DNA from: a virus | Taxonomy: Duplodnaviria; Caudoviricetes | Strand: one strand, 5' to 3' | Length of the DNA: 64,000 nucleotides | Virus record (IMG/VR): IMGVR_UViG_3300032234_001062 | Location: 1-64,000 of that record | The notes under the pieces: generated by a model | Told to the model about the DNA's origin: nothing | Seen by the model: only the letters and a program-made list of their open reading frames with translations | Databases searched by the model: none | Made by a program: the position numbers and the translations under genes | Part shown: positions 4,324 to 53,960 of the stretch, in pieces | Position numbering within the stretch: position 1 is the first letter of the stretch | How the letters are laid out: the number at the start of each line of letters is the position of its first letter

Positions 4324-5793
4324 TTAAAGAGTTAAAACAATTACACTTTTTGCAGGAGTAGAGCCATTACTGTTATATAAAATATCTCTAAAAAAAGAAT
4401 TTACACTTGGAGTATCTGAAATAGATATTCGATTAGATGTACCAGCAGAACCACTAGGTGATGGTCCGATTCCAGTTAAATCAATTACGCTAGCATTAGG
4501 AGATAAATTAGTACCGTATTGACTAAATAACCAAAGAGATCCTGTTTGAGCTTTAGGTCCATTTGATAATCCTCCATTAATTCCACCTTTCCCTGGTTTA
4601 AAAATAGTAGTAGCATCAATAGTTCCTATACAAAAGATAGTTAAATGAGTTCCTCCTGTAGAACCACCAGGAGCTCCATCTCCACCTCTACCACCAGTTT
4701 GTCCAGGTGAACCAAAAATTGTTGGATCTTGTATTCCTCCTGAATAAGACGCTCCTTGACCTCCTGCTCCACCAAAAGTAGAACCTCCTGGTGAACCTTG
4801 ACTAGGAGCAGTTATATTATTATTATTTGGAGTTCCTATACCAATATAATTAATTGTTAATGATTGAGCAGATCCACCTGATGTTCCAGATGTTCCCCAG
4901 GCTCCAGGACCACCAGAACCTCCTGTTTGAGTAGGAGAACCAACAGAAGTTCCTCCACCACCTGCTCCTCCACCTCCTCCGCCTGCTAATAAATATCCAT
5001 CTCCTCCTGGATTTCCGTTACCAGAATATCCTCCAGTAGCAAACCATTCTGTGCGTTGCCCAAAATTTGGATCATAATATATTGCTCCTCCAACTCCTCC
5101 ACCAGCTGTTCCTCGACCACCTGGACCACCACTACCACTATTAATACCATATTCGATTGGCATAGATGATGCTGATCCGCCAGTTCCATTAGTCCATCCT
5201 GGAGATCCAAGAGTTGGTGCAGCTCCAGCGTATGGAGCAGTTCCAGGAATTCCTGGAAAACCACCTAACCCTGTTCCGCCTGCTCCTCCTGGACCACCTA
5301 CACCTCCTAATCCACCATTAACACCATTAGGAGAAGTAACAGTTCCTCCACCTACGATATTTCCTCGCACTATGAGTGGAGTTCTTATAAGATTTAAAGT
5401 ACAACCTGTAGGTATTGTTAAATTTCCTTGAATTTCTAATATTGACCAATCATTAGAATTACCACCTCTTACAGTTATTACTGTATTAGTTCCAGTAATA
5501 GTAAAATTATTAACAATTCCTCTTTTTCCATTTAAATTAAATGTTGTATTAGTTCCAATAGAAATACTATTAAGAGCTTCACTAGGTTTCAAATCATAAG
5601 TAAAATTATTTATTTTTATTTTTAATTCTTCAGTGCTTTTATTGAACCAAATATTAGTAGTATTTTCTTGTTGCGGAGGAACACTAGATATCGCTAATTG
5701 TTGATTAAATTTTACTGCTTTATTGATATTTATACCAGTAGGTGTATTATCTATGTTTTCTATTTGAGAAAAATCAATTGAAGTAAGAGCCAT
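4324..5793 (-). CDS. Glycine-rich (polyglycine-II-like) putative tail adhesin, paralog 1
   Basis: GGxGGxGG runs separated by aromatic loops; conserved core SMPIEYGINSGSGGPGGRGTAGGG shared with 6965..8437 and 8452..9963. Confidence 0.65.
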   Translation of the reverse strand: MALTSIDFSQIENIDNTPTGININKAVKFNQQLAISSVPPQQENTTNIWFNKSTEELKIKINNFTYDLKPSEALNSISIGTNTTFNLNGKRGIVNNFTITGTNTVITVRGGNSNDWSILEIQGNLTIPTGCTLNLIRTPLIVRGNIVGGGTVTSPNGVNGGLGGVGGPGGAGGTGLGGFPGIPGTAPYAGAAPTLGSPGWTNGTGGSASSMPIEYGINSGSGGPGGRGTAGGGVGGAIYYDPNFGQRTEWFATGGYSGNGNPGGDGYLLAGGGGGGAGGGGTSVGSPTQTGGSGGPGAWGTSGTSGGSAQSLTINYIGIGTPNNNNITAPSQGSPGGSTFGGAGGQGASYSGGIQDPTIFGSPGQTGGRGGDGAPGGSTGGTHLTIFCIGTIDATTIFKPGKGGINGGLSNGPKAQTGSLWLFSQYGTNLSPNASVIDLTGIGPSPSGSAGTSNRISISDTPSVNSFFRDILYNSNGSTPAKSVIVLTL

Positions 5794-5797
5794 AATT

Positions 5798-5807
5798 TAT
5801 TTTTATG
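5798..5807 (-). promoter_or_regulatory. CATAAAAATA motif (putative late promoter, leaderless)
   Basis: Lies 4 nt upstream of ATG 5793; no SD. Confidence 0.4.
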
Positions 5808-5830
5808 TATATATATAAAAAAATTTTTTT

Positions 5831-6448
5831 TTAATAACTCCAGATAACAGCACTATATTTTATTCCTTCAGTTATTTGTTTTGCTTCATGAGGATGAGTA
5901 TAACCAGATGGAAAAACGAGTACATCTCCTATTGAAGGAGAAATAGTAACATCTTGTCTTGGAAAATATGTTTCTCCACCTTTAAAATTATCATTTAAAT
6001 AAAATATAAAAGAAACAGATCTTTTAACTTCTAAATTAAAACCACCATCCACATGTTCTTTATAATAATTATTTCCTTCATATTTTAAAATCTGAAATCC
6101 TTCATCTCCATTATATCTGAAATGAGTAGTAACTTCATTATTATAAGTATATTTATAAATTTTCATTAATTGTTCTATGCATGTTTTAAAAGCATATCCA
6201 AGAATTGAGTGAGCTTTAAACAATTCAGAATGAACTCCAAAAATTTGTGTTAAATAAATTATTTGTGTTTTACGATAATCTTCTACATTTCCAAATGTTT
6301 TTGCATCTTCCCATTTACAACGTTTTTCAATTGTATCAATTATGAATTCACAATCGTTTTTATTAATAACATTTTTAAAAATTATTATATCTTTATTATT
6401 TTTATGTTTATACTTAATTGGTGATTCTAATTCATAATAATTATCCAT
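5831..6448 (-). CDS. 2OG-Fe(II) oxygenase, prolyl 4-hydroxylase-like
   Basis: QILKY…YKEHVD (HxD), RSVSFIFYLND..KGGETYFP, HPHEA (distal His), GIKYSAVIW (2OG-binding Lys). Confidence 0.88.
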   Translation of the reverse strand: MDNYYELESPIKYKHKNNKDIIIFKNVINKNDCEFIIDTIEKRCKWEDAKTFGNVEDYRKTQIIYLTQIFGVHSELFKAHSILGYAFKTCIEQLMKIYKYTYNNEVTTHFRYNGDEGFQILKYEGNNYYKEHVDGGFNLEVKRSVSFIFYLNDNFKGGETYFPRQDVTISPSIGDVLVFPSGYTHPHEAKQITEGIKYSAVIWSY

Positions 6449-6455
6449 GATTAAC

Positions 6456-6968
6456 CTACTTATTATCTTTTAAATTATTATATAATAGTAAATATATGTT
6501 TTTAGCTTCTTTTAAAGAAAATTCTATATATTGTTTATCCTCATTATTTTTAATACATTTTAATTTTATTTTTTCAAAATTTAAAATAATTTGACTCATA
6601 ATATTTATTTGATCTTCTAATTTAAAATCAAATATATAAGTATCTTCATTTAAATTTAAAAATAAAAAAGAATCATTTTTTACAGGTATAGATAAATTAT
6701 TATCTTGTTCTGGATTTTCTTTATAATAATTTTCTAAACTTTCTATTGCTCTTTTTCTATCATCTTGTTTTTTTAATGATTCATTTAATGATATTTGTCC
6801 AGTATTAAAATCTAATAAAGGAAATTTAACTTCATCATCAGTTAAAACATATAATCCAAGATATTTTTTATAAGGTTCTTCATAAATACCTTGAATAAAT
6901 TTTAAATCTTCATTTCCATCTTCTTTTATTGTTAAATATACATTATAAGGTTTTTTAATTTCTTTCAT
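6456..6968 (-). CDS. Putative tail-fibre assembly/chaperone-like protein
   Basis: Coupled (ATGA) to the upstream Gly-rich gene; …LEDQINIMSQI… weakly recalls DUF4376-type fibre chaperones. Confidence 0.35.
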   Translation of the reverse strand: MKEIKKPYNVYLTIKEDGNEDLKFIQGIYEEPYKKYLGLYVLTDDEVKFPLLDFNTGQISLNESLKKQDDRKRAIESLENYYKENPEQDNNLSIPVKNDSFLFLNLNEDTYIFDFKLEDQINIMSQIILNFEKIKLKCIKNNEDKQYIEFSLKEAKNIYLLLYNNLKDNK

Positions 6969-8437
6969 GGATAAGTTATTGCTACTTTTACTTTTGCTGG
7001 TGTAACACCACTTGCTTCATATAATATTCCAGTAAAAAAATTAGAAACTTCAGTAGAATTACTGATTGCATATCTATTAGAAACACCATTAGGTCCAGTA
7101 GGAGTACCACTAGCACCAGTTAAATCAATTCCAGATATAGTTTCAGATCCTGTAGGAGTAAATAACCAAAGAGATCCGGTTTGAGCTCTAGGAAGAGAGG
7201 TGCTTCCTCCTGTTAATCCGCCTTTACCAGTTCTAATGTTTATAGAAGTAGATATTGGTCCACCTGAGTAAATAGAAAGATGTGCTCCTCCTGTTCCTCC
7301 ACCTGCTCCACCATTTCCGCCAGCACCACCTGGTGAACCATTAGTAGGTAAATCATCGCTTGTAGGTGCATACCAAGTATTATATCTACCACCATTACCA
7401 CCTGCTCCGCCACTAGTTCCAGAAGTACCTGACATAGAAGATGTAGGGGTACCTATACCAGTATAAGGAGTAGATAAGACACCAACAGGTCCACCATTAG
7501 TTCCAGAAATCCCTGTAGCAGCAGGACCACCAGGTGGTATACTAAGTGGAGTAGAACCAGAACCGGGTGTTCCAGGACCACCTGCTCCTCCACCTCCACC
7601 ACTTATCATTATAAGATAATAACTAGATTCTGGTCTTTCATTATAACCACCACCACCTGGATTTCCATTACCAGATGATCCACCAGAAGTTGCTGTAGAA
7701 TTATAAGAAGAATATCTATGTCCACCACCACCTCCACCGGCTGTTCCTCGACCACCTGGACCACCGCTACCACTAGAAATGCCATATTCGACTGGCATAG
7801 ATATAGCTGATCCACCATTTTGATTTGGCCAAGTTGAAGGTGAATTAGTTCCTGGTTGACCAGTACCAGTTCCTGGAGTTACATTATTACTCATGTAATA
7901 TCCATTATAGCCACCAGTTCCACCTGAACCACCTACACCAGCAGCTCCACCATTGGTCCCATCAGGAGAAGTAATAGTACCATTACCAATTATAGATCCT
8001 CTCACTATTAGTGGTACTCTCGTTAATCTTAAAGTGGTTCCACTAGCGATGTTTAAATTACCTAATATTTCTAAATTAGACCATTGTGCTCCACCAATAG
8101 CACTAGACCTAATTTCTAAAACTGTTCCACTACCTGATATAGTTAAATTATTAATTACTCCAGTACTTCCATTAAGAGAAATAACACTAGAAGTAGAAAC
8201 AGATATGTTATTATAATCTATTTGAGGAGATAAATCATAAATTACTGAATTAACTTTTATTTTTAAATTATTAGATATTGAATCTACCCAAATTGTTCCA
8301 TTAGATTCATTAACTGTAGGTGTTTTAGTTGGTAAAATAACTTCTTGATTTAATATTGTTGTTTTATTAATATTTATAGTGTTACTAGTTTCACTAGCGT
8401 TTTCAATTTCATTAAAATTTAATTTTGTAAGAGCCAT
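6965..8437 (-). CDS. Glycine-rich putative tail adhesin, paralog 2
   Basis: Same architecture as 4324..5793; MALTKLNF N-terminus; SMPVEYGISSGSGGPGGRGTAGGG core; LPRAQTGSLWLF C-terminal block. Confidence 0.65.
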   Translation of the reverse strand: MALTKLNFNEIENASETSNTININKTTILNQEVILPTKTPTVNESNGTIWVDSISNNLKIKVNSVIYDLSPQIDYNNISVSTSSVISLNGSTGVINNLTISGSGTVLEIRSSAIGGAQWSNLEILGNLNIASGTTLRLTRVPLIVRGSIIGNGTITSPDGTNGGAAGVGGSGGTGGYNGYYMSNNVTPGTGTGQPGTNSPSTWPNQNGGSAISMPVEYGISSGSGGPGGRGTAGGGGGGHRYSSYNSTATSGGSSGNGNPGGGGYNERPESSYYLIMISGGGGGAGGPGTPGSGSTPLSIPPGGPAATGISGTNGGPVGVLSTPYTGIGTPTSSMSGTSGTSGGAGGNGGRYNTWYAPTSDDLPTNGSPGGAGGNGGAGGGTGGAHLSIYSGGPISTSINIRTGKGGLTGGSTSLPRAQTGSLWLFTPTGSETISGIDLTGASGTPTGPNGVSNRYAISNSTEVSNFFTGILYEASGVTPAKVKVAITYP

Positions 8438-8451
8438 AATTAATTACCTTT

Positions 8452-9963
8452 TTAAGAAGTTAAGTATATTTTTGTTTTTGCTGGTGTAATTCCATTTGGT
8501 TCAAATAAAATTTGAGTAAAAAAATCACTAGTTCCAGATGCATTAGATGTAAGAATTCTAGTTAACATTCCTGATGTACCAGATGGATTTCCTGAACCAC
8601 CTGTTAAATCTATATCAACTGGACTAGTATTATTAATTGTAAATAACCAAGCTGATCCAGTTTGAGCTCTAGGAAGAGAAGTGGTTCCACCTGTTAGTCC
8701 ACCTTTACCTGGCCTAATTTTTATAGAAGATGATATTGTTCCAGCAGCATAAATAGAAAGATGAGCTCCACCAGTTCCACCTCCTGCTCCACCATTACCA
8801 CCACTTCCACCAGGTGATCCAGGTAATCCATTAGAATATCCTGCAGAATATCCTTCACCGTATTCTATTCCATCATAATAAAGATAATTTCCCCAATAAT
8901 CTAATCCTACTACTTTACCAGTACCACCTGCTCCACCAGAAGTACCAGCACTACCTAATGAATTAGTACTAGGAGTACCTATACCAGTGTAAGGAGTAGA
9001 TAAAGTTCCAGCAGATCCACCATTAGTACCAGAAATTCCTGTAGATGCTGAACCGCCTGACCTATTTGGTATCAACCCGCTTCCTAATGTATATGTAGCA
9101 TTTTGTCCAACACCACCTGCTCCTCCTCCACCAGCACCATAAGCATACATAGGAAATGTAGAATGTGGACCATTATAACTATAACCACTCCCTCCAACAT
9201 TTCCATTTCCACTACTACCTCCTGGAAAACTAGGTCCAAAATATTGACCATTATCCATTGAAATATTACTAGAAGATCCTCCACCTCCACCAGCTGTTCC
9301 TCTACCTCCTGGACCACCACTACCACTAGAAACACCATATTCGACTGGCATAGATATAGCTGATCCACCAGCACCATTAGGCCAAGTAGAAGGAGAAGCA
9401 GTACCTGCAGGAGTAGGAGTAAAAAGAAGTCCGCCACTTCCCCCTGTTCCTCCTGGACCACCTACACCAGCAGCTCCACCATTGGTTCCATCAGGAGAAA
9501 TAATTGTGCCACTACCTAAAATATTTCCTCTTACTATGAGAGGAGTTCTGATAAGATTAACTATACAACCAGATGCAATAGTAAGATTTCCTTGAACCTC
9601 TAAAATTGACCATTGAGCAGTTCCAAAAGAGTTTGATCTAACATTAAGGACAGTATTTGTTCCAGACACAACTAGATCATTAACTATTCCAGTATTTCCA
9701 CCTAGAGAAATAGTATTAGGAGAAGAAAAAACAATACTATTTAAATCTGTTTTAAAAGAATTAGTATAATTTACTAAGTTTATTTTAGATTTAAAAGATG
9801 CTGTAGTAGGATCTACCCAAATTGCGCCATCTAAATCTTCTGACGGAGTTATTATAGGTATAGATATTTGTTCTTTAAAATTTATATTAGTATTTATTTT
9901 TATTTCATTAGCAGTTTCAGTTACATTTTGAATTTCACCAAAATTTAATTTTGTTAATCCCAT
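8452..9963 (-). CDS. Glycine-rich putative tail adhesin, paralog 3
   Basis: Same architecture; DNA 9294-9369 is 71/76 identical to 7741-7816. Confidence 0.65.
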   Translation of the reverse strand: MGLTKLNFGEIQNVTETANEIKINTNINFKEQISIPIITPSEDLDGAIWVDPTTASFKSKINLVNYTNSFKTDLNSIVFSSPNTISLGGNTGIVNDLVVSGTNTVLNVRSNSFGTAQWSILEVQGNLTIASGCIVNLIRTPLIVRGNILGSGTIISPDGTNGGAAGVGGPGGTGGSGGLLFTPTPAGTASPSTWPNGAGGSAISMPVEYGVSSGSGGPGGRGTAGGGGGSSSNISMDNGQYFGPSFPGGSSGNGNVGGSGYSYNGPHSTFPMYAYGAGGGGAGGVGQNATYTLGSGLIPNRSGGSASTGISGTNGGSAGTLSTPYTGIGTPSTNSLGSAGTSGGAGGTGKVVGLDYWGNYLYYDGIEYGEGYSAGYSNGLPGSPGGSGGNGGAGGGTGGAHLSIYAAGTISSSIKIRPGKGGLTGGTTSLPRAQTGSAWLFTINNTSPVDIDLTGGSGNPSGTSGMLTRILTSNASGTSDFFTQILFEPNGITPAKTKIYLTS

Positions 9964-9990
9964 ATAATTATTTTATTATCCTATTTAAAA

Positions 9991-10245
9991 TTATTGATCA
10001 TAATTTGAATTTAAATTATAATTATCATCACTATAAATATATTTAAAATTTTGATAATCATCTGGTAAAGATTCTACTTCTAATATTCTATAATTATTAT
10101 CATTAGTGTTTCTAATATAATAAAATCCATATGTATCTTCATTAACTATTACTTTAATCAAATTTTCATTATTATAATTTTCATTATAAATATCAATTCC
10201 TGTAGAAATAACTAAATTATTTTTATCTATTACTATTTTTTTCAT
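9991..10245 (-). CDS. Small tail-fibre-associated protein (DUF2977/XkdW-like)
   Basis: VESLPDDYQNFKYIY…NLNSNY pattern typical of small fibre-associated proteins; coupled to the upstream fibre gene. Confidence 0.45.
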   Translation of the reverse strand: MKKIVIDKNNLVISTGIDIYNENYNNENLIKVIVNEDTYGFYYIRNTNDNNYRILEVESLPDDYQNFKYIYSDDNYNLNSNYDQ

Positions 10246-12494
10246 GTTCTTATCACTACTCCATAGGTTTGATTTGTTTGAGAAGGTATATCTGATAGTA
10301 TGTATCTATAGTTATATGTTTTTGAACCTAATTCTAAAATTGAAAAACCAGAAACACTATAGGTTGTACCTAATATTTCTATGGTACTAAAAAAATTAGT
10401 TTGACTAATACTATCAGGTCCTTGTATAACAATATCTAAAAAATTTCCAACTTCTAGCCATTCCATTCCATTCAATGGAGTATATCCAGGAGGAGATGCT
10501 CCATTTATGTTTTTTGTAAAATTTATTGAAATAAATCTATAAGTTTTATCATTAATTATTATATTACTAGGAGTTATTGAACTTGAATTAAGAGTGGTCT
10601 TATAAGTATTTACATCTATATATAATGTTACTTCGTATGGAAATAATTGAATTACTCCAAATTCAGTCCATAATTCAAATCTGTAACGAGTTTCTTTTCT
10701 AAACCATGTATAACTTTTAGTTGACGAATTACTAACAAAACTTGTTTGAATTCTTCTAAGAGCTAAAATTGTTGATGTTATTATTTTTGAAGTATCGTTA
10801 GGATTATCCACAAATACTTCAAATGAATATGTTCCACCAGTTTTTATTTTTTGAGGATTAATATTAAATATTCCATTAGAACTATTAAATTCAAAAACAT
10901 CTGGTTCGAAATTTGAATTTAATAATCTAAATTCATAAGGTCCTGTAGAATCTACTTTTGGTTCAAAAGTGGTTATATTATTTGGATCATCAATAATAAA
11001 ACTATATTTTTCAGAAAAATCTCCAGAACCTTTAATATAATAATAAAATGAATCAATAGTTATTTTACCAACAGTAAAAGATATTGTTATTTCTGTTTTA
11101 AAACTTTCACCAGTTGATTGATTAAAAACTGTAATTACTCTACTGATTTTTTCTATACTAGAATATTTACCATAAATTACTCCATTAGTTGGATTAAGAT
11201 TAATTCCAGAAGGAAAAGGAATATCTATTGTATAAATATTATGAATATTAACATTAATTATAGGACTAATTCCAAAATCAGCATTAATAACAAAAGATAT
11301 TTCACTTTCATTTTCTTTTAAGTATGAAAATTCAGTTATTATTGTTTTATTAAAATAACGATCTAATGAAATTTGAAGAGAATTAATTCCGAGAGGTCTA
11401 GTATTAAATATATTACTTGTTCCAGCAGTCGCACTAGAACATCCAATAAAATTATTATGTTTTTTATTCCAAATAATTCCTGACATTGTTTTATTATTAA
11501 AACTGCTAGTTAAAGATCTTAGTGTCCAATTTTTACCATCGCTTGATGTTATAAATATAGGTGAACTAGAACCAGATGCTACTGCAATAAACATCTCTAA
11601 TTCTGGACTCCATGATACTGAGGTCAATGCAAGAGTATTAATTGAAGCAGAAATACCATCGTTAATCCAATTTTGTCCATCACTACTGTATATTAATCTA
11701 TGAGAACCAGAGTTAGCAACTAATATAAATAAATTTAATTTTGGAGAATATGTTGAATCTTGCCAAGCATTATTAGCTTTAACTAAAGTATCATTTCTAG
11801 CACTACCCCAAGTGTTCCCATCATTATTAGAATATATAATTCTTGAAGAAGTTATTCCAGTTATACTATTAGCTGCTACGATAAAAGTTCCATTTCCATA
11901 AGTAATAGTTTTCCATGTAGGACTCAAATTAAAAACTGAACTTGGAGCAGTATCTAATCTCCAGTTTATTCCATCTCTAGAGATAATTATTCTTTTTAAA
12001 TCCAATAGTTGGCTGATTCTTGTACTCGATACAGCAATAAATAAACCACCTTCATATACAATATCTTCCCAATTAAGAGCTGGAAATCCATTTGTTATAT
12101 TACCAGGTTCAATCTGAGTTCTAAATCCAGTTGTAATCCAATCTCCAGCAGCAATTGGATTTTTTTTGTTTGAATACATTGCAAAATTATTTCCTACTAC
12201 AACAAATCTTGCTAATTCTTTACTGTATGCAATACTTCTCATTGATGTTGAACCTACAGATATTGAACTCCAAGAATTTCCACCATTACTAGAATAATTT
12301 ATAATTGCTGCAATTGAAGAGATGACAAAAATTAATCCATCTTCATTAATTGCTAATGTACTCCAACTTGTACTAGAGGGAGTTGATATTGATGAATTCC
12401 AACTATCAGAATAAAATCCAGTAAATGTTTTTATATGATTATCATATAAATTTTTTTTAATATTTATTAGATTTTGATTTAATTTTATTGACAT
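10242..12494 (-). CDS. Putative tail fibre/RBP: BNR (Asp-box)/WSPEL-type beta-propeller plus Ig-like domains plus tip domain
   Basis: SRDGINW, SNNDGNTW, SSDGQNW, VSWSPELEMFIAV repeats; PFPSGINLNPTNGVIYG (He_PIG-like). Confidence 0.65.
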   Translation of the reverse strand: MSIKLNQNLINIKKNLYDNHIKTFTGFYSDSWNSSISTPSSTSWSTLAINEDGLIFVISSIAAIINYSSNGGNSWSSISVGSTSMRSIAYSKELARFVVVGNNFAMYSNKKNPIAAGDWITTGFRTQIEPGNITNGFPALNWEDIVYEGGLFIAVSSTRISQLLDLKRIIISRDGINWRLDTAPSSVFNLSPTWKTITYGNGTFIVAANSITGITSSRIIYSNNDGNTWGSARNDTLVKANNAWQDSTYSPKLNLFILVANSGSHRLIYSSDGQNWINDGISASINTLALTSVSWSPELEMFIAVASGSSSPIFITSSDGKNWTLRSLTSSFNNKTMSGIIWNKKHNNFIGCSSATAGTSNIFNTRPLGINSLQISLDRYFNKTIITEFSYLKENESEISFVINADFGISPIINVNIHNIYTIDIPFPSGINLNPTNGVIYGKYSSIEKISRVITVFNQSTGESFKTEITISFTVGKITIDSFYYYIKGSGDFSEKYSFIIDDPNNITTFEPKVDSTGPYEFRLLNSNFEPDVFEFNSSNGIFNINPQKIKTGGTYSFEVFVDNPNDTSKIITSTILALRRIQTSFVSNSSTKSYTWFRKETRYRFELWTEFGVIQLFPYEVTLYIDVNTYKTTLNSSSITPSNIIINDKTYRFISINFTKNINGASPPGYTPLNGMEWLEVGNFLDIVIQGPDSISQTNFFSTIEILGTTYSVSGFSILELGSKTYNYRYILSDIPSQTNQTYGVVIRT

Positions 12495-12500
12495 ATAATA

Positions 12501-12508
12501 TATTTTTA
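12501..12508 (-). promoter_or_regulatory. TAAAAATA motif 6 nt upstream of SD-less ATG 12494
   Basis: TAAAAATA-TATTAT-ATG. Confidence 0.35.
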
Positions 12509-12524
12509 ATTCTTAAGCTTTTTT

Positions 12525-15500
12525 TTATTCAATAAAAATATTGATTTTTTTTGAAGCGTATTCTCCAATATAATAATAATTTGAAATCTGATTTGAAATC
12601 GTAGTGTTTCCTCCAGCAGCAACTAGGAGTCCTAATTCTGGATTAAAATCAATAGAAAATAAAGTAGTTGAAACATCATAAGCAGTCCAACTTATTGCAT
12701 CTTCACTAATAATTACCTTAGCATTATTGTTATCTAAGACTATAAAACAATTTAACTGTGAAACCCATATTATTTTTGAACCATTAAATGTAACATTAGA
12801 TATTGTCCAATTAATTCCATTTGAACTTTTTATAATTTTATTATCAGCAACACTTATAGCAACAAAAAGATTTAATTCTGGACTCCAAGTAATACTACGC
12901 CAAGCACTACTGCTTACATATAATGAATCACTAAAATTCCAATCAATTCCATTATAACTATACATTATGAGATTATCAAATCTTCTTGCTGCAATAACAA
13001 ACATATTTAATTCTGAACTCCAAATAATTGAACTCCAAAAATTTGAAGTACCAGTAGAAACTGGTTTTGTACCAGCCAACCAATTTTTTCCATCATAACT
13101 AATTATAGTATTATTACCAACACCTATAATAATAAAAATTCCTAGTTCTGGACTCCAAGCAATAGAGTCGAAATAATTTAATTGAATATTAGAAGCAACA
13201 TTTGCTTTTTTCCAATTAATACCATCTGAACTATATATAAAAAATGGCTTATCATAATTTTGATTTTCAACTGTCCAACCTGAAATTCTTCCTATAGCGA
13301 TAAAAATTCCTAATTCTGGACTCCAAGTAGCACAATTAAATCCATATGATGTATTTTGAGGATCATTCGGATTAAATTCATCTATAAACTCAAGTGATTG
13401 AGCATAATTCCAATTAACTCCATCTATACTATTAATTATTTTAAAGTTTGGATTAGATGAATTAATAGAAGTAGTTTGAGTACCACTAAAAGCAACAAAA
13501 ATATTTAATTCTCTACTATAAACTAAATTACCTATATTTCCCCAAAATGATGTAGTAGGATTATTTCTAGTAATCCAATTATTTGCATAATTATTATAAG
13601 GTTCTTGTAAATTATCTGGTATGTATTTTAATATCCATCCATAATCAGAAATTGATTGTATTCCTGATTGAAATGGTCCAGGAAAATTCCATGTCCATTT
13701 TGTATATTTTTTATTATTAATTTCATAGTTAGAATAATTAGAGTAATTATATCCTCTTCCTGTTCCAGAATTATAAGTTGAATTATTAACAATAAATTTA
13801 GTTGAATCACTTTGAAGTCCAATTTTTATTGATTTTAAAATTATTTCTGGAAAGAAATATCCTCCAGAAATTATAAAAGAAAATGAAGGTCCACTAGTAG
13901 ACCATTCATAATAAATTGATTCAATAACATATGATCCGAACGAATTATTAATTATCGAACCTATAGATGAATTAATAAAACCTTCTTTTTTAATGTTATT
14001 AATATTATTATATCCAGTATTTATGCTTGAATTAGAATATATATTTCTTATTCTAAAAGTTGTAGAGGTAGAACCAGAAGTATTTCTAGCGGTTATAGTA
14101 TAAGTTATATCATTAGAATATGGTAATGTAGTTCCAGAAATATTTCCATTAATTTCATTAATAGATAAATAATTTAGTGGTAATTGAGGTGAAATAGAAT
14201 AATCTATTGAATATCCATTAGTAAGAACTGGAGTAGATGAAATACTACTTCCTACAAAAGGAGTTATGGTTGAAGGAGTATAATTTAATGCTGATGGGGC
14301 TGATATGTTTAATGAATTAATTCCTGTAATATAAAAAATATTATCTTTTATAGGAAAATAATTTATTAAATCATCTACAAGCCAAATAAATTGAGTGTTT
14401 CCATTAACATCTAATTGTTTTGTAGCATTAGAAAAAGAAAAAGTATATGAATTTAGAGTTAAAGATTGTAAAATATTTAAAGTATAATTTCCTACTACAG
14501 TAAAAATTAATTCTTTTTTATAATATAAAATTTCATTTTCTTTATAAAAAATTCTTCTTGTTGCTAATGTTAAAATGTTATTAAAAACCATTTTAGCATT
14601 ATTATCGTAAAAATAATTTTTTTCTATTTTTCCACCAATAATATTTGGATTGTTATAAAAATAAGAAACATATCCTAACCATTCACCTTCTGTTGATATA
14701 TCTCCTCTTAAATCTCCACCTTGAATAACTGTATTTAAAACTCTTACTGTTAAATTTATAATTTTTTGAACAGAATTTAATGAATTTTGAACTGTAATTC
14801 TATATGCTACATTAGGTTGAACAGTGGTTGGTATTCCACTTATAAATCCATTTAATGTATTGAAGTTTATTCCATAAGGAAAAGAATTAGAATTACTTAC
14901 ACCAATTATTGAATAACTAAAAGTATAATCAGTTCCTTGATTAATTATTGGATATAAATTTATTTCATCTATTAAATCAATGATAATATTATCATTAGAA
15001 TATTCTAAATTTGAAATTGATTCCATAGTATTTGAAATGTAAATACTTACATTTGAAAAAATTACTTGACTACCAGATGTTGCTAAAATTTTATATGTTT
15101 TATTACTTTGAGCAACTGTAGGGGTTCCATTAATTTCTCCAGTAAAAGAATTTAATGTAATTCCTGTAGGTAAAGATTCATCGCAAGAAAAAATAAAATT
15201 ATTTAATTCACTTAATATTGGAAAAGTATTAAAAAAGCTTCCAATTGATGTTCTTATTGAAGAGTTATAATAATTAAAAGTCAATAAATTTGAATTTTCT
15301 ATTAAATCATAATAATATCTTTTTTCTAGAAAATGATTTTTTCCAGAAATTCTAGAAACCAAAATTCTAGTATTTGTTGTACCATTACTAGATAAAATTA
15401 CAAAACTTCCATACTTTCTATTCCAAATTCCAGTTGTCCATGTATTTGCATTTAATAAATTTCTTGCTGTCCAAATATTAGAATCTGTTGAAGATAAAGA

Positions 15501-16430
15501 ATGACCAGTAAATGCCAAAGTTGTTCCTGTACCTGTACTTGCAATTAATGCTATTAATTCTAATTCTTGACTCCAAATTATTGATTGAAAATTATTAGTT
15601 CCATTAAAAGCAACAGTAGTCCAAGTAATTCCATCTAATGAACTAATTATTTTTCCATTATTTCCAGCTGCAATAAATGATTTTAATTTAGATGACCATA
15701 TAACAGTATTAAGTCTGAAATTTATTGTAACTAGATCAGATGTAATATTAGATGATAAGAACCAAGAACTAGAAAAACTTGGATTAAAATTAGAATATGC
15801 TATTCTTCCTGATCCGTCATTAGAAACAATTACGAATCTTCTTAATTCTGGACTATATGCTATTGAATCCCATGAAACATTATTGAATATAGATGAATTT
15901 ATACTTATCCAAATAACTCCATTTAAACTTATCATTACACGATTCGTACCACTACTAGCAACAGCAACAAAATATCCGTTTCCATAAGTTATTGCTTCCC
16001 AATTATTATTTTCTATCCCCGAAGTCGCAAATGAAAAATCAGTTGTTAATGTAGGTACTGCTTGATTAGTTCCACTAGAATATAAAACTCTCATTGATGT
16101 TGTACTACCAGACGCAGTTACTCCGACAAATCTTCCTGCCCCAAAAGTTATACCTTTCCAGTTATTAGTACCACTTGTTAATGTAATATTTGTCCATGTT
16201 TCTCCACCATTACTTGAATATACTAATGCATTTGTTCCAGTTGTTGCAGCAGTATTACTAACAGCTAACATATGACCATCACTTTCATTAATAGCAATAC
16301 TAGTCCAAGGAGAATCAGCAGCTGCTTTTGTTCCTAAAGTATCAAAATAAAAACCACTATATGTTTTAACATCATTATTATAAGTTGATTCTTGATTAGT
16401 TGGTAATGTTTGATTTAATTTAATTGGCAT
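12525..16430 (-). CDS. Putative tail fibre/RBP: two WSPEL/BNR propellers, three He_PIG-like Ig domains, two tip-like domains
   Basis: About 11 W/YSxEL-type repeats (WSPELGIFIAI etc.); LPTGITLNSFTGEINGTPT, FPYGINFNTLNGFISGIPT, LPLNYLSINEINGNISGTT. Confidence 0.7.
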   Translation of the reverse strand: MPIKLNQTLPTNQESTYNNDVKTYSGFYFDTLGTKAAADSPWTSIAINESDGHMLAVSNTAATTGTNALVYSSNGGETWTNITLTSGTNNWKGITFGAGRFVGVTASGSTTSMRVLYSSGTNQAVPTLTTDFSFATSGIENNNWEAITYGNGYFVAVASSGTNRVMISLNGVIWISINSSIFNNVSWDSIAYSPELRRFVIVSNDGSGRIAYSNFNPSFSSSWFLSSNITSDLVTINFRLNTVIWSSKLKSFIAAGNNGKIISSLDGITWTTVAFNGTNNFQSIIWSQELELIALIASTGTGTTLAFTGHSLSSTDSNIWTARNLLNANTWTTGIWNRKYGSFVILSSNGTTNTRILVSRISGKNHFLEKRYYYDLIENSNLLTFNYYNSSIRTSIGSFFNTFPILSELNNFIFSCDESLPTGITLNSFTGEINGTPTVAQSNKTYKILATSGSQVIFSNVSIYISNTMESISNLEYSNDNIIIDLIDEINLYPIINQGTDYTFSYSIIGVSNSNSFPYGINFNTLNGFISGIPTTVQPNVAYRITVQNSLNSVQKIINLTVRVLNTVIQGGDLRGDISTEGEWLGYVSYFYNNPNIIGGKIEKNYFYDNNAKMVFNNILTLATRRIFYKENEILYYKKELIFTVVGNYTLNILQSLTLNSYTFSFSNATKQLDVNGNTQFIWLVDDLINYFPIKDNIFYITGINSLNISAPSALNYTPSTITPFVGSSISSTPVLTNGYSIDYSISPQLPLNYLSINEINGNISGTTLPYSNDITYTITARNTSGSTSTTFRIRNIYSNSSINTGYNNINNIKKEGFINSSIGSIINNSFGSYVIESIYYEWSTSGPSFSFIISGGYFFPEIILKSIKIGLQSDSTKFIVNNSTYNSGTGRGYNYSNYSNYEINNKKYTKWTWNFPGPFQSGIQSISDYGWILKYIPDNLQEPYNNYANNWITRNNPTTSFWGNIGNLVYSRELNIFVAFSGTQTTSINSSNPNFKIINSIDGVNWNYAQSLEFIDEFNPNDPQNTSYGFNCATWSPELGIFIAIGRISGWTVENQNYDKPFFIYSSDGINWKKANVASNIQLNYFDSIAWSPELGIFIIIGVGNNTIISYDGKNWLAGTKPVSTGTSNFWSSIIWSSELNMFVIAARRFDNLIMYSYNGIDWNFSDSLYVSSSAWRSITWSPELNLFVAISVADNKIIKSSNGINWTISNVTFNGSKIIWVSQLNCFIVLDNNNAKVIISEDAISWTAYDVSTTLFSIDFNPELGLLVAAGGNTTISNQISNYYYIGEYASKKINIFIE

Positions 16431-16439
16431 TTTTTAAAC

Positions 16440-18572
16440 TCACGTATTATTAATAATAATTTCGGTTAATTCATTTTGAAAAAAATTAGGATTAAAAGAT
16501 TGATTAAATTTATAAATTGTAGAATCTGTAGAAGAATCATAAAAAACTTCTGCTGTACTTTTTAAAAATATATTTCCTCTAAAAATTAATTTAGTCCAAT
16601 TAATAACTGGATTACCAGTTTTTAAATCTCCTTTTATTTCTAAAATTAGAAAATTTTCATAAGTAGTATTTGTTGATTTTCTTATTCTATAATATGTTAT
16701 AATACTTTTAATTAAATTAGGAAGAAAATTGTTATTACGATCAAAAAAGAAATTTTTAGATAATAATCCTTTATTTTTACCATAAAATTTATTACAATAA
16801 GAATTTTTAGAAATGTAACCTAAACTATAATCAAATAATTCTTCTTTTCTACCTTCTATAATTGCACTAGAATCTATAATTTCAATTTGTTCAGCTCTTA
16901 ATTTAAAATTTAAAACATTAGATGTAATTTTTATTTTAAATGTTTTATTTTTACCGATTAATGTATTACTAGCAGTTATTGTATATTCAGTTTCAGCAAA
17001 ATTTGTTGATAAAGAACCACTTATAATTCCAGAATCAACATCTAATAATAAACCAGTGGGAGCTGATGGAGAAATAGAATAACTTATATTTGTACCAGAA
17101 TCATAAGAAGGAACTAAAAAAATATTATTATCACTCCTATCTTTAATTAAAGACGTTTCAGAATAATTAAAATTAGTTATTTCAATTTCACTATTAGCAA
17201 CAAGAATTTGTAGATCAGAGTATATTTTTCGATTATCAACTTCTGATATAGCATATATCCTATAAGTTGTTAATTCTTGAGCAACTGTAGGTGTTCCAAT
17301 TATTTCTCCTGAATTTTTATCTAAAGTTAAACCTTTTGGAAAAAGATTATTTATAGCATCCTCTATTTCATCATTAAAAATTGAAAAATTAAATCTTCTT
17401 GATTCATTTATAATTGGATATATTTTATTTGATTTACCTACTGTAGTATATAATTTAGGAATAGTATAATTAAAATTATATAGAAAATCATTTATAGGTG
17501 CTAAATAATTATTTCTTTCTAATAAAGTATTATCACCTAATGCTCTAGTTAATATAATTCTATTAGTTCCACCATTTGCTAATGAAATAAAAGTTCCAAA
17601 AAATCTATTCCAAATTATAGTGCTAAAAGTAGCATCTAACGAAGAAGTTTCTCTAAAAATCCAATTAGTGCCATCAATAGATGTAATTACTTTTTTAGTT
17701 CCTAAAGTAGTTGAATTAGAAATTGCAACAAAGATTTCTAATTCTTGTGACCATGTAACTGATGTTAAAGTTAAAAGTATTGTTAAAGTTGATAAAATCC
17801 AAGTTATTCCATTACTAGATGTAGCTGTTACTCCACTATTACCTACCATTACAAATATATTTAATTTAGAACTCCAAATTACTGAATTCCATGTTCCACT
17901 AGGTAACGTAGTAGTTGCCCATGATTGACCATTATAATTTGAATATGCTCCACCAGAATTTGTAATTGCAACAAATCTTTTTAATTTTTCACTATAAGTA
18001 ATTGCTTTAAATGCTAATGAATCAGCACTATTAAAATATGACCATGTACTTCCATTCTTACTAGTCATTACACGATTAGTACCACTACTAGCAGCAGCAA
18101 CAAAATATCCATTTCCGTAAGTTATTACTTCCCAATTATTATTGTTAGTATTATTAATATATGAAAAATCATTTGTTGTAATTGGTTTTATTTTATTAGA
18201 AAAAAATATTTTAGATACGTTAGTTGTAGTTCCACTAGATGATATTCCAACAAAAATATCATTACCAAAAGCAACTCCTTTCCAGGCTGAATTAGAATTA
18301 CTTGATGGAGTTGTACTATTATTAAAATTTATCCAAATTAATCCACCATTATCTGAGTAAGCAAAATTATTTGCTACAGTATTTGTATTATTATTACTAA
18401 CAGCTATCATATGTCCAGTGGATTCATTTACTGCTATACTACTCCATGGTACAGCTGCAGATGCTGATCCAGTTATCCAATCATTAACATAAATGCCATT
18501 ATATGTTTCCATATAATTATCATATAATTGTTGTAATTCAACAATGAATTTTTTATTTAGCGTTATTGGCAT
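16440..18572 (-). CDS. Putative tail fibre/RBP: WSPEL/BNR propeller plus two He_PIG-like Ig domains plus tip domain
   Basis: Propeller paralogous to 12525..16430 (18064-18143 vs 15931-16010: 74/80 nt identical); FPKGLTLDKNSGEIIGTPT, APTGLLLDVDSGIISG. Confidence 0.7.
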   Translation of the reverse strand: MPITLNKKFIVELQQLYDNYMETYNGIYVNDWITGSASAAVPWSSIAVNESTGHMIAVSNNNTNTVANNFAYSDNGGLIWINFNNSTTPSSNSNSAWKGVAFGNDIFVGISSSGTTTNVSKIFFSNKIKPITTNDFSYINNTNNNNWEVITYGNGYFVAAASSGTNRVMTSKNGSTWSYFNSADSLAFKAITYSEKLKRFVAITNSGGAYSNYNGQSWATTTLPSGTWNSVIWSSKLNIFVMVGNSGVTATSSNGITWILSTLTILLTLTSVTWSQELEIFVAISNSTTLGTKKVITSIDGTNWIFRETSSLDATFSTIIWNRFFGTFISLANGGTNRIILTRALGDNTLLERNNYLAPINDFLYNFNYTIPKLYTTVGKSNKIYPIINESRRFNFSIFNDEIEDAINNLFPKGLTLDKNSGEIIGTPTVAQELTTYRIYAISEVDNRKIYSDLQILVANSEIEITNFNYSETSLIKDRSDNNIFLVPSYDSGTNISYSISPSAPTGLLLDVDSGIISGSLSTNFAETEYTITASNTLIGKNKTFKIKITSNVLNFKLRAEQIEIIDSSAIIEGRKEELFDYSLGYISKNSYCNKFYGKNKGLLSKNFFFDRNNNFLPNLIKSIITYYRIRKSTNTTYENFLILEIKGDLKTGNPVINWTKLIFRGNIFLKSTAEVFYDSSTDSTIYKFNQSFNPNFFQNELTEIIINNT

Positions 18573-18602
18573 ATATAATATATTTAATATTTAATATGTT
18601 TT

Positions 18603-19520: not shown

Positions 19521-19576
19521 AATATTATTTTATAAAAAAATAGTGTGATTTAAATAATTATATAAAAATTAAAATT

Positions 19577-21949
19577 TTATTCAATTATTAAAGGAGTTGT
19601 TGCTGGTACTCCAGTTCCAATAAAATTTCCTAAATCAAATGGAGGTGTTCCACCATTACTACTCCAATTAGAGTATGTAGAACCATCAGTTGAATAAACT
19701 AATGAACTCCTTAAGTAAGTAACTCCATTCCAAATTATTCGTTTAAAACTAGCATTGTCATTATTACTTGCTGAATAAGATATGGTCATTCCTATACCAT
19801 AAAAAGTTGCTCCATAACTATCAACAGAAGCAATAACTGCTTTAACGATTCCGTTTCTAAAAGTAGAAGAAGCTAAACTACCACCAGAAGAAGTAGCAGA
19901 ATCATCAAAACCGACAAATCCGTAACCTTCACCATCTATGTCACCACCAAGAGTCATAATTGTATTAAGTATGACTATTCTAATCCTTATTGTTGTTGAT
20001 GTACTACCAATGTTATTTGTTGCTGTTACTGTATAATTTACATCACTAGTTGTTGAAGGAGTAGTTCCACTTATTACACCAGTTGATGTATTAAAATTTA
20101 AACCTGATGGTAAAGTAGAAGAAATTGAATATGTTAAAGTTCCAGTTCCAACATTTAATAAAGTTGGTGTATAATTTACTGTTGAAGAAATTCTTGGAGT
20201 TACATAATCAGATGAATAAAACAATCCTGATGGAGGTGATAAATTTTCTGCGGTTGGCCATGATACTGCTGATGTAATTACATAAGTATTATATGGATAT
20301 ATACAATTAAAAGTATTATTAGATGATATTTGTGTTGGTTGAAGTTTATTTATAATTGTTCCATCTCCTAAATAACCAAAATTATTAAGACCCCATCCAT
20401 ATATTTTATAATTATCTCTTATTCCTAAAGCATAACATCCACAACTCTGAGTTGTTATACATGTATATTTATAATCACAACATACTAATGATGGAGTATT
20501 TTGATTGGTAGTATTACCATTTCCTAATATTCCACAGCAATTACAACCCCAACCAACTAATCTAGAATCAGATTTTCTTATTGCTAAAACTGTAGATGGT
20601 GATGTTAAAAAAGTTATCCTTGAATTACTATTACTTGTAATATCTATATATTCTCCACCACAAACTTTAACTGGAATACAAGAGTGTGTACCTGACGAAC
20701 TTATTCCTAATTGTCCTACCGTATTATCTCCCCAAGAATATAAAGACCCATCTGATAATAATCCAAAACCATTACAGTTAGATATTATAAGTTTACAAAA
20801 ATTATATCCACCAGAAATTAAAGTTGGTGAACAGCTACCAGTTAATTGACCATTTCCTAATTTTCCACAAGTATTACTACCCCAACTATAAAATTTATTA
20901 TCAGAAGTTACAGCATAAGAACTAAAATTTATACTTAAAGCATCAGTAAATAAGCAAGTTGAGCAGACAAGTGATGGAGTATATATATATTGACTAGCAG
21001 AACAATTTCCTATTGTTCCTAATCCATTAGTTCCCCAAGCATATAATCTGTTATTACTATCAATAATATAATTAACTATATTTGCATTAAAAATATTAAG
21101 GTTTGGAATAAATTTACAAACATTTAACGCTGTTATTAAACAAGGAGTTGCTCTAACGCCAGTTCCACCATCTCCTAATAATCCAAATCCAGACACAGAT
21201 GAATTATCTCCCCATCCATATAATTGTCCAGTAGTTGTTAAAGCCCAAGCAACATCTCCACCTATCCAAGCACATCTAAAATTTAATGATGGACATATAC
21301 TTATTGGAACACAAGAAGAAGTCGTCGTCCCATTCCCTAAAAGACGAGTTCCATTATATCCCCATCCATACAATTTATTAGTTGTAGTTATACCTAAATT
21401 AGTTGCATTAAGAGTTCCCCCAATAGTGACGAAAGAATATAAAAAATTACAACACACAGCAACAGGAATACACTTATTTATTAAAGATGTATTTCCAGAT
21501 TCATTATTTCCTAATTGACCATAATCATTAGAACCCCAAGAAAATAAAGTATTATTATTTGTTATTCCAATAACATGAGAGGAGGCTCCATTATTATTTA
21601 TAATACATTTAAAAAAATTTCCACCACAAACTAGCGATGGTAGACATGAAAAAGAAGTTTGACTATTTGTACCTAATTGATTTTTAACATTTCCCCAAGC
21701 TAAGTTCTTATCAGTTATAGACTTACTTCTTTTTGCTAATACAAAGTTTTCATTATTTAATCTTATATTTAAATCACTAGATTGTTCATGTGTATTATTA
21801 GATAATAAACCTATATATCTATCTCTATTATTATACCTAATATTTATTCTATTCGTTTGAGATATTCCCGGACCATTTAATTCACTAACATCATCATAAT
21901 ATTGGATTTCAGAGCAATTTATACTATTTTTTCTATAATTAAGTGGCAT
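19577..21949 (-). CDS. Putative RBP: Cys-rich RCC1/BLIP-II-type beta-propeller plus He_PIG-like Ig plus tip domain
   Basis: 8 clear and 1 degenerate WGxNxxGxLG repeats; LPSGLNFNTSTGVISGTTP; 30 Cys counted. Confidence 0.8.
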   Translation of the reverse strand: MPLNYRKNSINCSEIQYYDDVSELNGPGISQTNRINIRYNNRDRYIGLLSNNTHEQSSDLNIRLNNENFVLAKRSKSITDKNLAWGNVKNQLGTNSQTSFSCLPSLVCGGNFFKCIINNNGASSHVIGITNNNTLFSWGSNDYGQLGNNESGNTSLINKCIPVAVCCNFLYSFVTIGGTLNATNLGITTTNKLYGWGYNGTRLLGNGTTTSSCVPISICPSLNFRCAWIGGDVAWALTTTGQLYGWGDNSSVSGFGLLGDGGTGVRATPCLITALNVCKFIPNLNIFNANIVNYIIDSNNRLYAWGTNGLGTIGNCSASQYIYTPSLVCSTCLFTDALSINFSSYAVTSDNKFYSWGSNTCGKLGNGQLTGSCSPTLISGGYNFCKLIISNCNGFGLLSDGSLYSWGDNTVGQLGISSSGTHSCIPVKVCGGEYIDITSNSNSRITFLTSPSTVLAIRKSDSRLVGWGCNCCGILGNGNTTNQNTPSLVCCDYKYTCITTQSCGCYALGIRDNYKIYGWGLNNFGYLGDGTIINKLQPTQISSNNTFNCIYPYNTYVITSAVSWPTAENLSPPSGLFYSSDYVTPRISSTVNYTPTLLNVGTGTLTYSISSTLPSGLNFNTSTGVISGTTPSTTSDVNYTVTATNNIGSTSTTIRIRIVILNTIMTLGGDIDGEGYGFVGFDDSATSSGGSLASSTFRNGIVKAVIASVDSYGATFYGIGMTISYSASNNDNASFKRIIWNGVTYLRSSLVYSTDGSTYSNWSSNGGTPPFDLGNFIGTGVPATTPLIIE

Positions 21950-47148: not shown

Positions 47149-47154
47149 TAATAA

Positions 47155-53718: not shown

Positions 53719-53960
53719 GTGAATCAAAAGAAACAAACGAATCAAAAGAAGAATTGAAATTTAAAAAAATTATTGATGAAAATAATTTAATTGAACTTAA
53801 AGGTTTTTTAAACAAAATGAAAATAGTTTTAGAAAATAAATTAGAAGATAAAATAGATGAACTCACTCAATTAAAACAAGATTTACCTCATTTAATTCAT
53901 TTAAAAAGAATGAGTAAATTACAACAGGAAAAAGATAATGACTCCACAAGAAATATCTAG
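53715..53960 (+). CDS. Small coiled-coil hypothetical protein
   Basis: ATGA-coupled to the previous gene; heptad pattern. Confidence 0.5.
   Translation: MSESKETNESKEELKFKKIIDENNLIELKGFLNKMKIVLENKLEDKIDELTQLKQDLPHLIHLKRMSKLQQEKDNDSTRNI

Follow-up and report, generated by a model that had tools for sequence, protein, structure and literature searches.

The first 64,000 nucleotides of the 77-kb viral contig IMGVR_UViG_3300032234_001062 (77,059 bp; CheckV completeness 33%), hereafter called the window, carry at positions 4324-21949 a row of seven large genes that very probably constitutes a fibre cluster. Embedded in this row are the genes of two enzymes, a prolyl 4-hydroxylase (P4H)-type oxygenase and a glycosyltransferase (GT). 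The oxygenase is tied by position and by phyletic distribution to the Gly-rich genes of the cluster. We favour the explanation that the region is the end of a late baseplate-to-fibre operon, in which a Gly-rich/oxygenase module and a separate, mobile GT have come together and do not form one pathway; we hold this view tentatively, with doubt slightly outweighing confidence.

Between positions 4324 and 21949, twelve open reading frames (ORFs) are co-oriented on the minus strand, among them three Gly-rich genes (here G1, G2 and G3), three genes encoding Asp-box repeats and immunoglobulin (Ig)-like domains, one gene encoding an RCC1 propeller with an Ig-like domain, the oxygenase, the GT and two small ORFs (see Table 1). 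This 17.6-kb block of seven genes of the receptor-binding-protein type had been recognized in an earlier note, written from the letters alone. It is real and its coordinates were confirmed, and synteny with a complete relative shows that its genes are not chance ORFs. The gene content described there stood as well, with the amendment that two small conserved ORFs (6456-6968 and 9991-10245) belong to the block, too, and that it continues into an operon of 22 genes. This operon is co-oriented throughout, extends over about 36 kb from a gp25-like gene at 39410-39772 down to position 3784, and has intergenic gaps of -4 to 96 bp. Thus, the fibre block is not self-contained, it is the distal part of a late operon. 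The phage itself is a jumbo phage of roughly 290 kb with a T4-like core; a T4-like portal is encoded nearby (phrog_213 7.2e-51, with which tblastn agrees). It is not a typical T4-like cyanophage, a group whose many 2OG (2-oxoglutarate) oxygenases had been brought up in the note.

The proposal of a multi-paralogue fibre-type cluster was borne out by paralogy and by the Ig, RCC1 and Asp-box modules. The three Asp-box-repeat proteins (10242-12494, 12525-16430 and 16440-18572) are mutually paralogous with 28-39% identity and carry, in this order, 3, 7 and 3 Asp-box-like motifs of the type [ST]x[DN]GxxW, and likewise 3, 7 and 3 WSxELxxF motifs. No Pfam BNR model matches any of the three, and "propeller" is for them a putative, motif-based label. 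PF25390 reaches 179.2 bits (cut-off 150) in the RCC1 protein, six stretches of which match PF00415. The seven proteins fall into two classes by their N-termini: class A (MPIxLN...Y.D/N...G) is common to the RCC1 protein and the three Asp-box-repeat proteins, class B (MALTKLNF.EIEN) to the three Gly-rich proteins. These would be two paralogous fibre-type sets, each with its own, presumably docking, N-terminal segment, and the two classes may mark interchangeable fibres that attach at two kinds of site.

The enzyme kinds given in the earlier note, P4H-like and GT9-like, hold up. The oxygenase lies far above the cut-off of PF13640 (see Table 1). Its residues D134, H187 and K197 do not vary among 12 homologues, in which H132 shows a conservation of at least 90%; they align to the matching residues of the Bacillus anthracis P4H, and the HxD...H iron triad and the Lys that binds 2-oxoglutarate (2OG) are intact. 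A 12-sequence profile searched against solved structures retrieved the P4Hs of B. anthracis (5hv0/3itq; 4.5e-18), Chlamydomonas (2jig; 1.4e-10) and PBCV-1 (5c5t; 8.8e-10), followed by P3H1, collagen P4H and LH3. The top solved relatives are peptidyl Pro/Lys hydroxylases exclusively. Unlike these microbial and viral P4Hs, the window enzyme, whose activity is that of a candidate, adjoins genes of Gly-rich beta-solenoid proteins, not of collagen-like or Pro-rich repeats.

A complete relative, G001, is syntenic with the fibre block. Its 290-kb genome (290,572 bp) with terminal repeats shows the order o394, o89, a propeller-less RCC1 version of 320 amino acids (aa), three propeller and Ig genes, a G2-like gene, an o170-like gene, the oxygenase, a G1-like gene and o147. 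The oxygenase, 72% identical to that of the window, is the only PF13640 gene in these 290 kb. The order G2-o170-oxygenase-G1 is intact, despite G3 and the GT missing from the cluster there.

Co-occurrence in metagenomes was scored by identical recorded size of the contigs in bp, a measure of shared contigs and not of gene order, with oxygenase orthologues taken at 71% identity or more and Gly-rich contigs counted from 5 kb upwards. Of the 13 Gly-rich contigs, 11 also have an oxygenase orthologue (77,059; 398,952; 290,572; 139,354; 108,229; 20,450; 17,891; 14,948; 12,490; 7,351 and 5,620 bp). This set includes all four Gly-rich contigs larger than 100 kb, while the 5,620-bp contig combines the oxygenase orthologue with two Gly-rich genes. 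The two Gly-rich contigs with no listed oxygenase orthologue measure 77,629 and 6,863 bp. Counted in reverse, Gly-rich genes are present on 11 of 14 oxygenase contigs of at least 5 kb. Both gene order and phyletic distribution support the tie between the oxygenase and the Gly-rich genes.

Beyond these orthologues, the nearest viral relatives of the oxygenase show a different arrangement. The family has 549 relatives in IMG/VR, of which the best 80 loci (27-47% identity) were examined. These carry mostly arrays of 5-7 copies, with up to 11, whereas the window has one copy. Many of the array-bearing contigs are about 50-70 kb in size (e.g., L107:6939-16556), and judged from contig size the loci may stem from few independent lineages. 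At least 20 of 42 non-redundant large neighbours were assigned by PHROG to minor-tail or tail-fibre genes, downstream of which the arrays lie; one large neighbour matched a 'head decoration' family. An ORF with (F/Y)PP(F/Y) repeats was present in 44 of the 80 loci. Among 61 arrays that could be evaluated, 27 are directly preceded by this ORF, whose protein ends in long (F/Y)PP(F/Y) repeats. These phrog_61 arrays of uncultured phages thus resemble the window in family membership and in their place just downstream of tail-fibre or minor-tail genes, with a likely substrate gene adjacent. They differ in their partner, which in the window is a lineage-specific Gly-rich family and no (F/Y)PP(F/Y)-repeat protein.

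G1, G2 and G3 contain 21-23% Gly and share pairwise identities of 40-54%. An AlphaFold2 (AF2) model of G2, derived from 26 sequences, folds as a beta-solenoid with a predicted local distance difference test (pLDDT) score of 81.4. Foldseek gave no significant match to this model; VIA-align placed it with beta-solenoid adhesins, autotransporter passengers and tailspikes at moderate scores (top Z 8.8), the glycosylated TibA being among them (Z 6.4). A Gly/Pro-rich, collagen-like substrate, as the parallels named in the earlier note would suggest, is at odds with this result. The longest perfect G-X-Y runs of G1, G2 and G3 comprise 10, 6 and 6 triplets, mostly GGX, and are not conserved among the paralogues; with such short, unconserved runs and the beta-solenoid model, a collagen triple helix was rejected as the fold. 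A polyglycine adhesin of the gp38 type (phage S16/T2; polyglycine-II sandwich) was considered, too, and no such chain appeared among the Foldseek and VIA-align matches, where beta-solenoids were found instead. A profile of the Gly-rich family yielded 7 matches at 1e-30 or better among 1.84 billion representatives, all of them family members or fragments. The same profile found one relative only in a scan of viral sequences and no match in a scan of metagenomes, and tblastn of a Gly-rich protein against annotated phages gave no match. Long alternative-frame or antisense ORFs lie within the Gly-rich genes (4986-5264 and 9084-9461 on the minus strand, 7953-8216 on the plus strand, and frames at 5078-5431 and 9248-9595 on the plus strand); they are not genes but by-products of a coding sequence rich in GGN. 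Pro-rich ORFs in the contig itself were rejected as genes, for they are antisense frames of the Gly-rich genes in which GGN is read as NCC.

On our preferred reading, the region would be the distal, host-recognition end of the late baseplate-to-fibre operon. The single-copy oxygenase would be inherited together with the class B genes as one module in the order G2, o170, oxygenase, G1. Late in infection, the enzyme would most likely hydroxylate the class B fibre proteins as these are made, or else a partner that their assembly requires. A few conserved X-Pro-Gly turns are the candidate hydroxylation sites. The conserved ORF o170 gave a structural-atlas match to DUF4376/tail-fibre-assembly clusters with a score of 0.90 and a template modelling (TM) score of 0.38, a lead only; a role as fibre-assembly factor or fibre chaperone is possible. 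A dedicated fibre hydroxylase is the best single explanation of the oxygenase, because the gene forms a module with the Gly-rich genes, its product belongs to a protein-hydroxylating clade, and its viral relatives lie beside fibre and repeat-substrate genes. Judged from its sequence and setting, action of the oxygenase on fibre or other virion proteins is a serious candidate that we would still place somewhat below an even call. The broader statement, that in a lineage of phages of roughly 290-400 kb a dedicated single-copy P4H-type enzyme co-evolves with Gly-rich beta-solenoid receptor-binding proteins and hydroxylates them, appears doubtful at present.

The second enzyme is a GT-B glycosyltransferase resembling family GT9. 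Its match to PF01075 remains below the cut-off of 22 bits (16.8 bits; 17.1 in the genome search), while several homologues at 38-82% identity have a precomputed PF01075 match and bear the Joint Genome Institute (JGI) name ADP-heptose:LPS heptosyltransferase, LPS denoting lipopolysaccharide. The AF2 model is of good quality (pLDDT 89.8; predicted TM score 0.88), and the Foldseek top ten consist of GT9 enzymes or TibC only (2e-9 to 8e-7), including 3tov, a Veillonella parvula GT9 (2e-9), WaaF, WaaC and TibC (5.7e-7). Alignment by hhalign to Escherichia coli WaaC covered the linker and the donor-binding domain with 95.7% probability (E 1e-8). Here, the invariant DSSLQH of the GT, in the C-terminal nucleotide-sugar-binding motif, is aligned to DTGLSH of WaaC. 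Residues 1-76 of the GT aligned to WaaC neither in hhalign nor in a local alignment. The catalytic Asp of WaaC, Asp13, is situated in the N-terminal domain; the GT family has GGxGK as its invariant N-terminal motif and no invariant acidic residue in the N-terminal half. The N-terminal domain of the family is neutral to acidic (median net charge -1), in contrast to WaaC (+7) and WaaF (+5), which is a weak hint against a lipid A-Kdo (3-deoxy-D-manno-octulosonic acid) acceptor. Autotransporter heptosyltransferases (TibC, AAH) have an iron-binding Cys motif, a dodecameric assembly and a Ser acceptor in a beta-helix adhesin; the window GT contains 3 Cys residues. In short, the likeness to WaaC and WaaF (GT9, PF01075) concerns the fold and the donor-side motif, whereas the acceptor domain is neither aligned with WaaC nor basic.

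The GT is independent of the Gly-rich/oxygenase module, because in G001 it is located about 100 kb away from the fibre cluster (65% identity) and because it occurs on many contigs without that pair. By identical contig size, no more than 4 of the 13 Gly-rich contigs carry an orthologue of the GT (77,059; 398,952; 290,572 and 20,450 bp). GT orthologues also occur on 11 further contigs of at least 60 kb, two of them of 349 and 273 kb, that show neither a Gly-rich nor an oxygenase gene; these represent 11 of 14 large contigs. The linkage of both enzymes to fibre genes, for which the earlier note had suggested a survey of related phages, was borne out in part: the oxygenase keeps company with the Gly-rich genes, the GT does not, and in other phages neither enzyme accompanies the propeller fibres. 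The propeller domain was found in 34 loci of other phages (GC content 29-63%), within large ORFs of tail-gene regions, and in none of the 34 was an oxygenase or a GT present within 10 kb.

What the GT accompanies instead is revealed by its relatives. A profile scan of IMG/VR gave 534 of them, of which the best 80 loci were examined; a single-sequence scan of viral contigs gave no match. In 62 of the 80 loci an ORF of at least 480 aa lies within four genes of the GT. Tail-fibre, tailspike and virion-structural families dominate a PHROG tally of 44 non-redundant large neighbours, and nine large genes adjoining or near the GT, tested singly, comprised five of tail-fibre, spike or J-like type, one virion-structural gene, one terminase and two unknowns. 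In Pelagibacter phage HTVC112P, the GT homologue directly follows a tail-fibre gene; in P-SSM2 its surroundings comprise heptose-pathway genes, tail-fibre genes and a 2OG oxygenase. In G001 (G001:161500-181499, 4592-14066), the GT orthologue is part of a group with a GT2-like gene, a hexapeptide acyltransferase, a DegT aminotransferase and two genes of the Asp/Asn-hydroxylase family PF05118, and is followed by two fibre-like genes, encoding a protein of 526 aa, the C-terminus of which resembles that of o394, and a protein of 608 aa with a C1q domain. PF05118 is the family that includes the lipid A hydroxylase LpxO. Fibre-like genes flank the GT in the window, G001, HTVC112P and P-SSM2. To our knowledge, a habitual placement of GT9-like (phrog_8954) genes beside tail-fibre, tailspike and central-fibre genes has not been described so far. 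The GT may be an independently mobile cassette which settles beside fibre genes in many phages. Candidate acceptors are the LPS core of the host and, by analogy to the autotransporter heptosyltransferases of bacteria, a fibre protein, and both fit the data; action on fibre proteins we consider unlikely, if well worth keeping in view. Oxygenase and GT would then be two separate accessory enzymes.

Several points weigh against this reading. The linkage of oxygenase and Gly-rich genes could be simple descent, because all contigs carrying them belong to one narrow lineage; moreover, these shared contigs are known from identical bp sizes, not from inspected DNA. Fibre regions are known to gather accessory genes. 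The Gly-rich proteins are neither Pro-rich nor collagen-like, and X-Pro-Gly sites that are at least 85% conserved in the family number three only; the conserved sites are G-P171-G, G-P305-G/A and R-P403-G. Both the gp25-like match and the He_PIG match of the 750-aa protein are below threshold (see Table 1). One GT neighbour is a terminase, and in P-SSM2 and G001 the GT is part of clusters resembling LPS or glycan biosynthesis (heptose pathway genes, DegT, acetyltransferase, LpxO-type hydroxylases). Finally, our view of virion location, substrate and chemistry of the proteins of this lineage is drawn from the genes.

A different explanation, which we regard as quite possible, holds that both enzymes are moron or auxiliary genes that came to lie in a recombination-prone fibre region and act on host targets. 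In this case the GT would alter the host LPS core, resulting in receptor masking or superinfection exclusion, and the target of the oxygenase would be either a small molecule or a host protein, for instance one of the ribosome or a translation factor. For the GT, this is in good agreement with LPS heptosyltransferases WaaC and WaaF as best structural and profile relatives, with the ADP-heptose pathway genes around the P-SSM2 homologue, and with its place in G001 at the end of a cluster with a GT2-like gene, an acetyltransferase, DegT and two PF05118 hydroxylases. The GT also moves between loci and has spread far beyond the Gly-rich lineage. For the oxygenase, JGI gives the name 'Rps23 Pro-64 3,4-dihydroxylase Tpa1-like', and the literature casts phage 2OG oxygenases as host-metabolism genes (PMC9602691). 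However, the oxygenase is single-copy, accompanies the Gly-rich genes and is not seen without them on large contigs, and both genes are part of a tight late structural operon in which every terminator-like site of the coding strand falls within a gene and none is intergenic, the terminator scan itself being uninformative. Furthermore, the N-terminal domain of the GT lacks the basic charge of enzymes binding lipid A/Kdo. While heptose pathway genes adjoin the homologue in the 'LPS gene' cluster of P-SSM2, no ADP-heptose pathway genes (GmhA-type, HldE-type) were found in the complete relative G001, and therefore any heptose donor would be host-derived.

The earlier note had proposed that the two enzymes act in sequence, i.e., that Pro residues of the fibres are hydroxylated and the GT then glycosylates the hydroxylated residues as in collagen and plant hydroxyproline-rich glycoproteins. 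We consider such a coupling improbable. Both enzymes share one operon in the window and probably also one contig of 20,450 bp, the oxygenase is of the P4H type, and the 10-triplet G-X-Y run of G1 contains FPG and IPG. Giant viruses offer a precedent in mimivirus L230 and chlorovirus P4H. This is opposed by the distance of about 100 kb between GT and oxygenase in G001 and by the 11 of 14 contigs, all of 60 kb or more, on which the GT occurs with no Gly-rich or oxygenase gene. In addition, the two families rarely occur together in the 160 loci examined: GT-family genes are absent from the best 80 oxygenase loci (0/80), and oxygenase-family genes are present in 5 of the best 80 GT loci at a distance of 5-7 genes. 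Conservation of the G-X-Y run does not extend to G2 or G3, and we know of no GT9 enzyme that acts on hydroxyproline.

That the seven large proteins are not tail fibres at all, and that the enzymes serve head fibres, head decoration or non-virion secreted or surface-acting proteins, we likewise hold to be improbable: none of the seven matches a tail-fibre PHROG directly, the baseplate assignment rests on one sub-threshold gp25 match, Ig-like domains also decorate phage heads, and a 'head decoration' family occurs next to an oxygenase array, but the genes form one unbroken row with fibre-like neighbours and the gp25-like gene, the propeller domain resides in large ORFs of tail-gene regions in other phages, the fold is like that of beta-solenoid adhesins and tailspikes, and class-specific common N-termini are typical of interchangeable fibres.

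Known systems resemble single components of the fibre operon with its oxygenase module and mobile GT. Iyer et al. (2010, PMC2938197) described a tandem dioxygenase array in Syn9, for which secondary-metabolite synthesis was favoured, and proposed co-encoded collagen-like and tail-collar proteins as dioxygenase substrates in bacteria. In a virion preparation of a cyanophage, a homologue of prolyl 3,4-dihydroxylase has been found (PMC12801897). On the side of the GT, the autotransporter heptosyltransferases (TibC/TibA, AAH/AIDA-I) also are GT9-related GT-B enzymes encoded beside beta-helical adhesin genes. However, this likeness is one of fold alone, the window GT is not co-inherited with the beta-solenoid genes, and TibC measures about 400 aa (solved chains 385-389 residues) compared to 305 aa. 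In mycobacteriophages, the genes of virion-modifying GTs lie close to structural genes. There, phage-encoded GTs modify virion proteins at the C-termini of capsid and tail-tube subunits, according to the account of Freeman et al. (2023) given in PMC12619734; the hosts are Gram-positive-type actinobacteria and no hydroxylase is involved in the system as cited. The branched multi-receptor apparatus of CBA120 (TSP1-4) likewise consists of several paralogous fibre-type genes in a row with class-specific N-termini, but no depolymerase domains were detected in the window proteins, and a Foldseek match to the TSP4 N-terminus was non-significant (E 0.9).

Aquatic phages carry few accessory genes more commonly than those of 2OG/Fe(II) oxygenases, whose function has 'not been specifically investigated' (PMC9602691). 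If the module is what we suppose, the beta-solenoid, and not the collagen or polyproline helix, would be a substrate class for P4H-type enzymes, and the first defined substrate for these very abundant phage oxygenases would be at hand. Were phages to hydroxylate their own fibres, fibre modification would have to be reckoned with as a new factor in host range, in the stability of particles and in the arms race between phage and host. The lineage provides a clean test case, with one oxygenase gene per genome located among one small fibre-type gene family. The GT9-like family beside fibre genes, in turn, poses the question of fibre decoration versus remodelling of the LPS receptor.

Table 1. Genes of the fibre block and selected members of the same operon in the window (all on the minus strand).
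Feature	Position	Strand	Evidence
o147, 147 aa, last operon gene	3784..4227	-	82% identical, syntenic in relative; hydrophobic N-terminus, then charged helix-like sequence
G1, Gly-rich paralogue, 489 aa	4324..5793	-	69% identical in relative
P4H-type 2OG/Fe(II) oxygenase, 205 aa	5831..6448	-	PF13640 2.2e-14, 54.6 bits (cut-off 27); phrog_61 1.5e-34
o170, conserved ORF between G2 and oxygenase, 170 aa	6456..6968	-	58% identical, syntenic in relative; no Pfam/PHROG match
G2, Gly-rich paralogue, 490 aa	6965..8437	-	modelled beta-solenoid; 70.5% identical in relative
G3, Gly-rich paralogue, 503 aa	8452..9963	-	absent from relative
o84, 84 aa	9991..10245	-	overlaps stop of 750-aa gene; no family; no counterpart seen at that position in relative
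Paralogue with Asp-box repeats and weak Ig, 750 aa	10242..12494	-	He_PIG 0.0011, 19.8 bits (cut-off 24; sub-threshold); 28-30% identity to paralogues
Paralogue with three He_PIG stretches and an Asp-box repeat region at either end, 1301 aa	12525..16430	-	He_PIG 3.8e-12; 7 Asp-box-like motifs; internal and paralogue matches
Protein with Asp-box repeats and two He_PIG Ig, class A N-terminus, 710 aa	16440..18572	-	He_PIG 6e-11; paralogy; motifs
GT9-like GT-B glycosyltransferase, 305 aa	18603..19520	-	phrog_8954 8.7e-11; PF01075 sub-threshold; AF2 model
RCC1 propeller and He_PIG Ig protein, class A N-terminus, 790 aa, 30 Cys	19577..21949	-	PF25390 1.9e-52; PF00415 5.5e-40; He_PIG 2.8e-9
o89, small conserved ORF, 89 aa	21951..22220	-	syntenic in relative, 78% identical
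o394, fibre-like protein, 394 aa	22221..23405	-	directly upstream of block; weak tail-fibre match phrog_2710 1.7e-4; 83% identical in relative
gp25-like baseplate wedge gene, first operon gene	39410..39772	-	PF04965 E 7.3e-6, 26.1 bits (cut-off 27.2; sub-threshold)

The RCC1 orthologue of the relative (L003:1443-2405) retains the N-terminal approximately 110 residues and the Ig/C-terminal part, while the Cys-rich RCC1 propeller is absent; a whole propeller has therefore been inserted or deleted between close relatives. Presence or absence of the GT gene falls at the same spot as this propeller indel.

Upstream of the block, the C-terminus of o394 is common to a 2339-aa neighbour and to the 526-aa gene located behind the GT in G001. 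In the 2339-aa protein (26420-33439, minus strand), this resemblance covers about 100 aa at the C-terminus. Neither this ORF nor a 2012-aa ORF at 53938-59976 and two ORFs of 1093 and 1075 aa at 43867-50382, all three on the plus strand, has a Pfam match. Pfam and PHROG searches likewise gave no match for the Gly-rich proteins, o170, o84, most large neighbours and the remaining large genes of the operon. A 312-aa operon member (25455-26393, minus strand) shows a weak match to the carbohydrate-binding module CBM_5_12 (22.8 bits; cut-off 26.2) and may be a further host-binding protein, in which case the fibre-type set would exceed seven genes. Megablast of 20 kb of the window against annotated phages found no match. 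A promoter scan was uninformative, with 134 sites compared to 134.5 expected. The GC content of the window is about 24%, and a full-length NAD-dependent DNA ligase is encoded at 61703-63538 on the plus strand (phrog_3869 2.6e-137).

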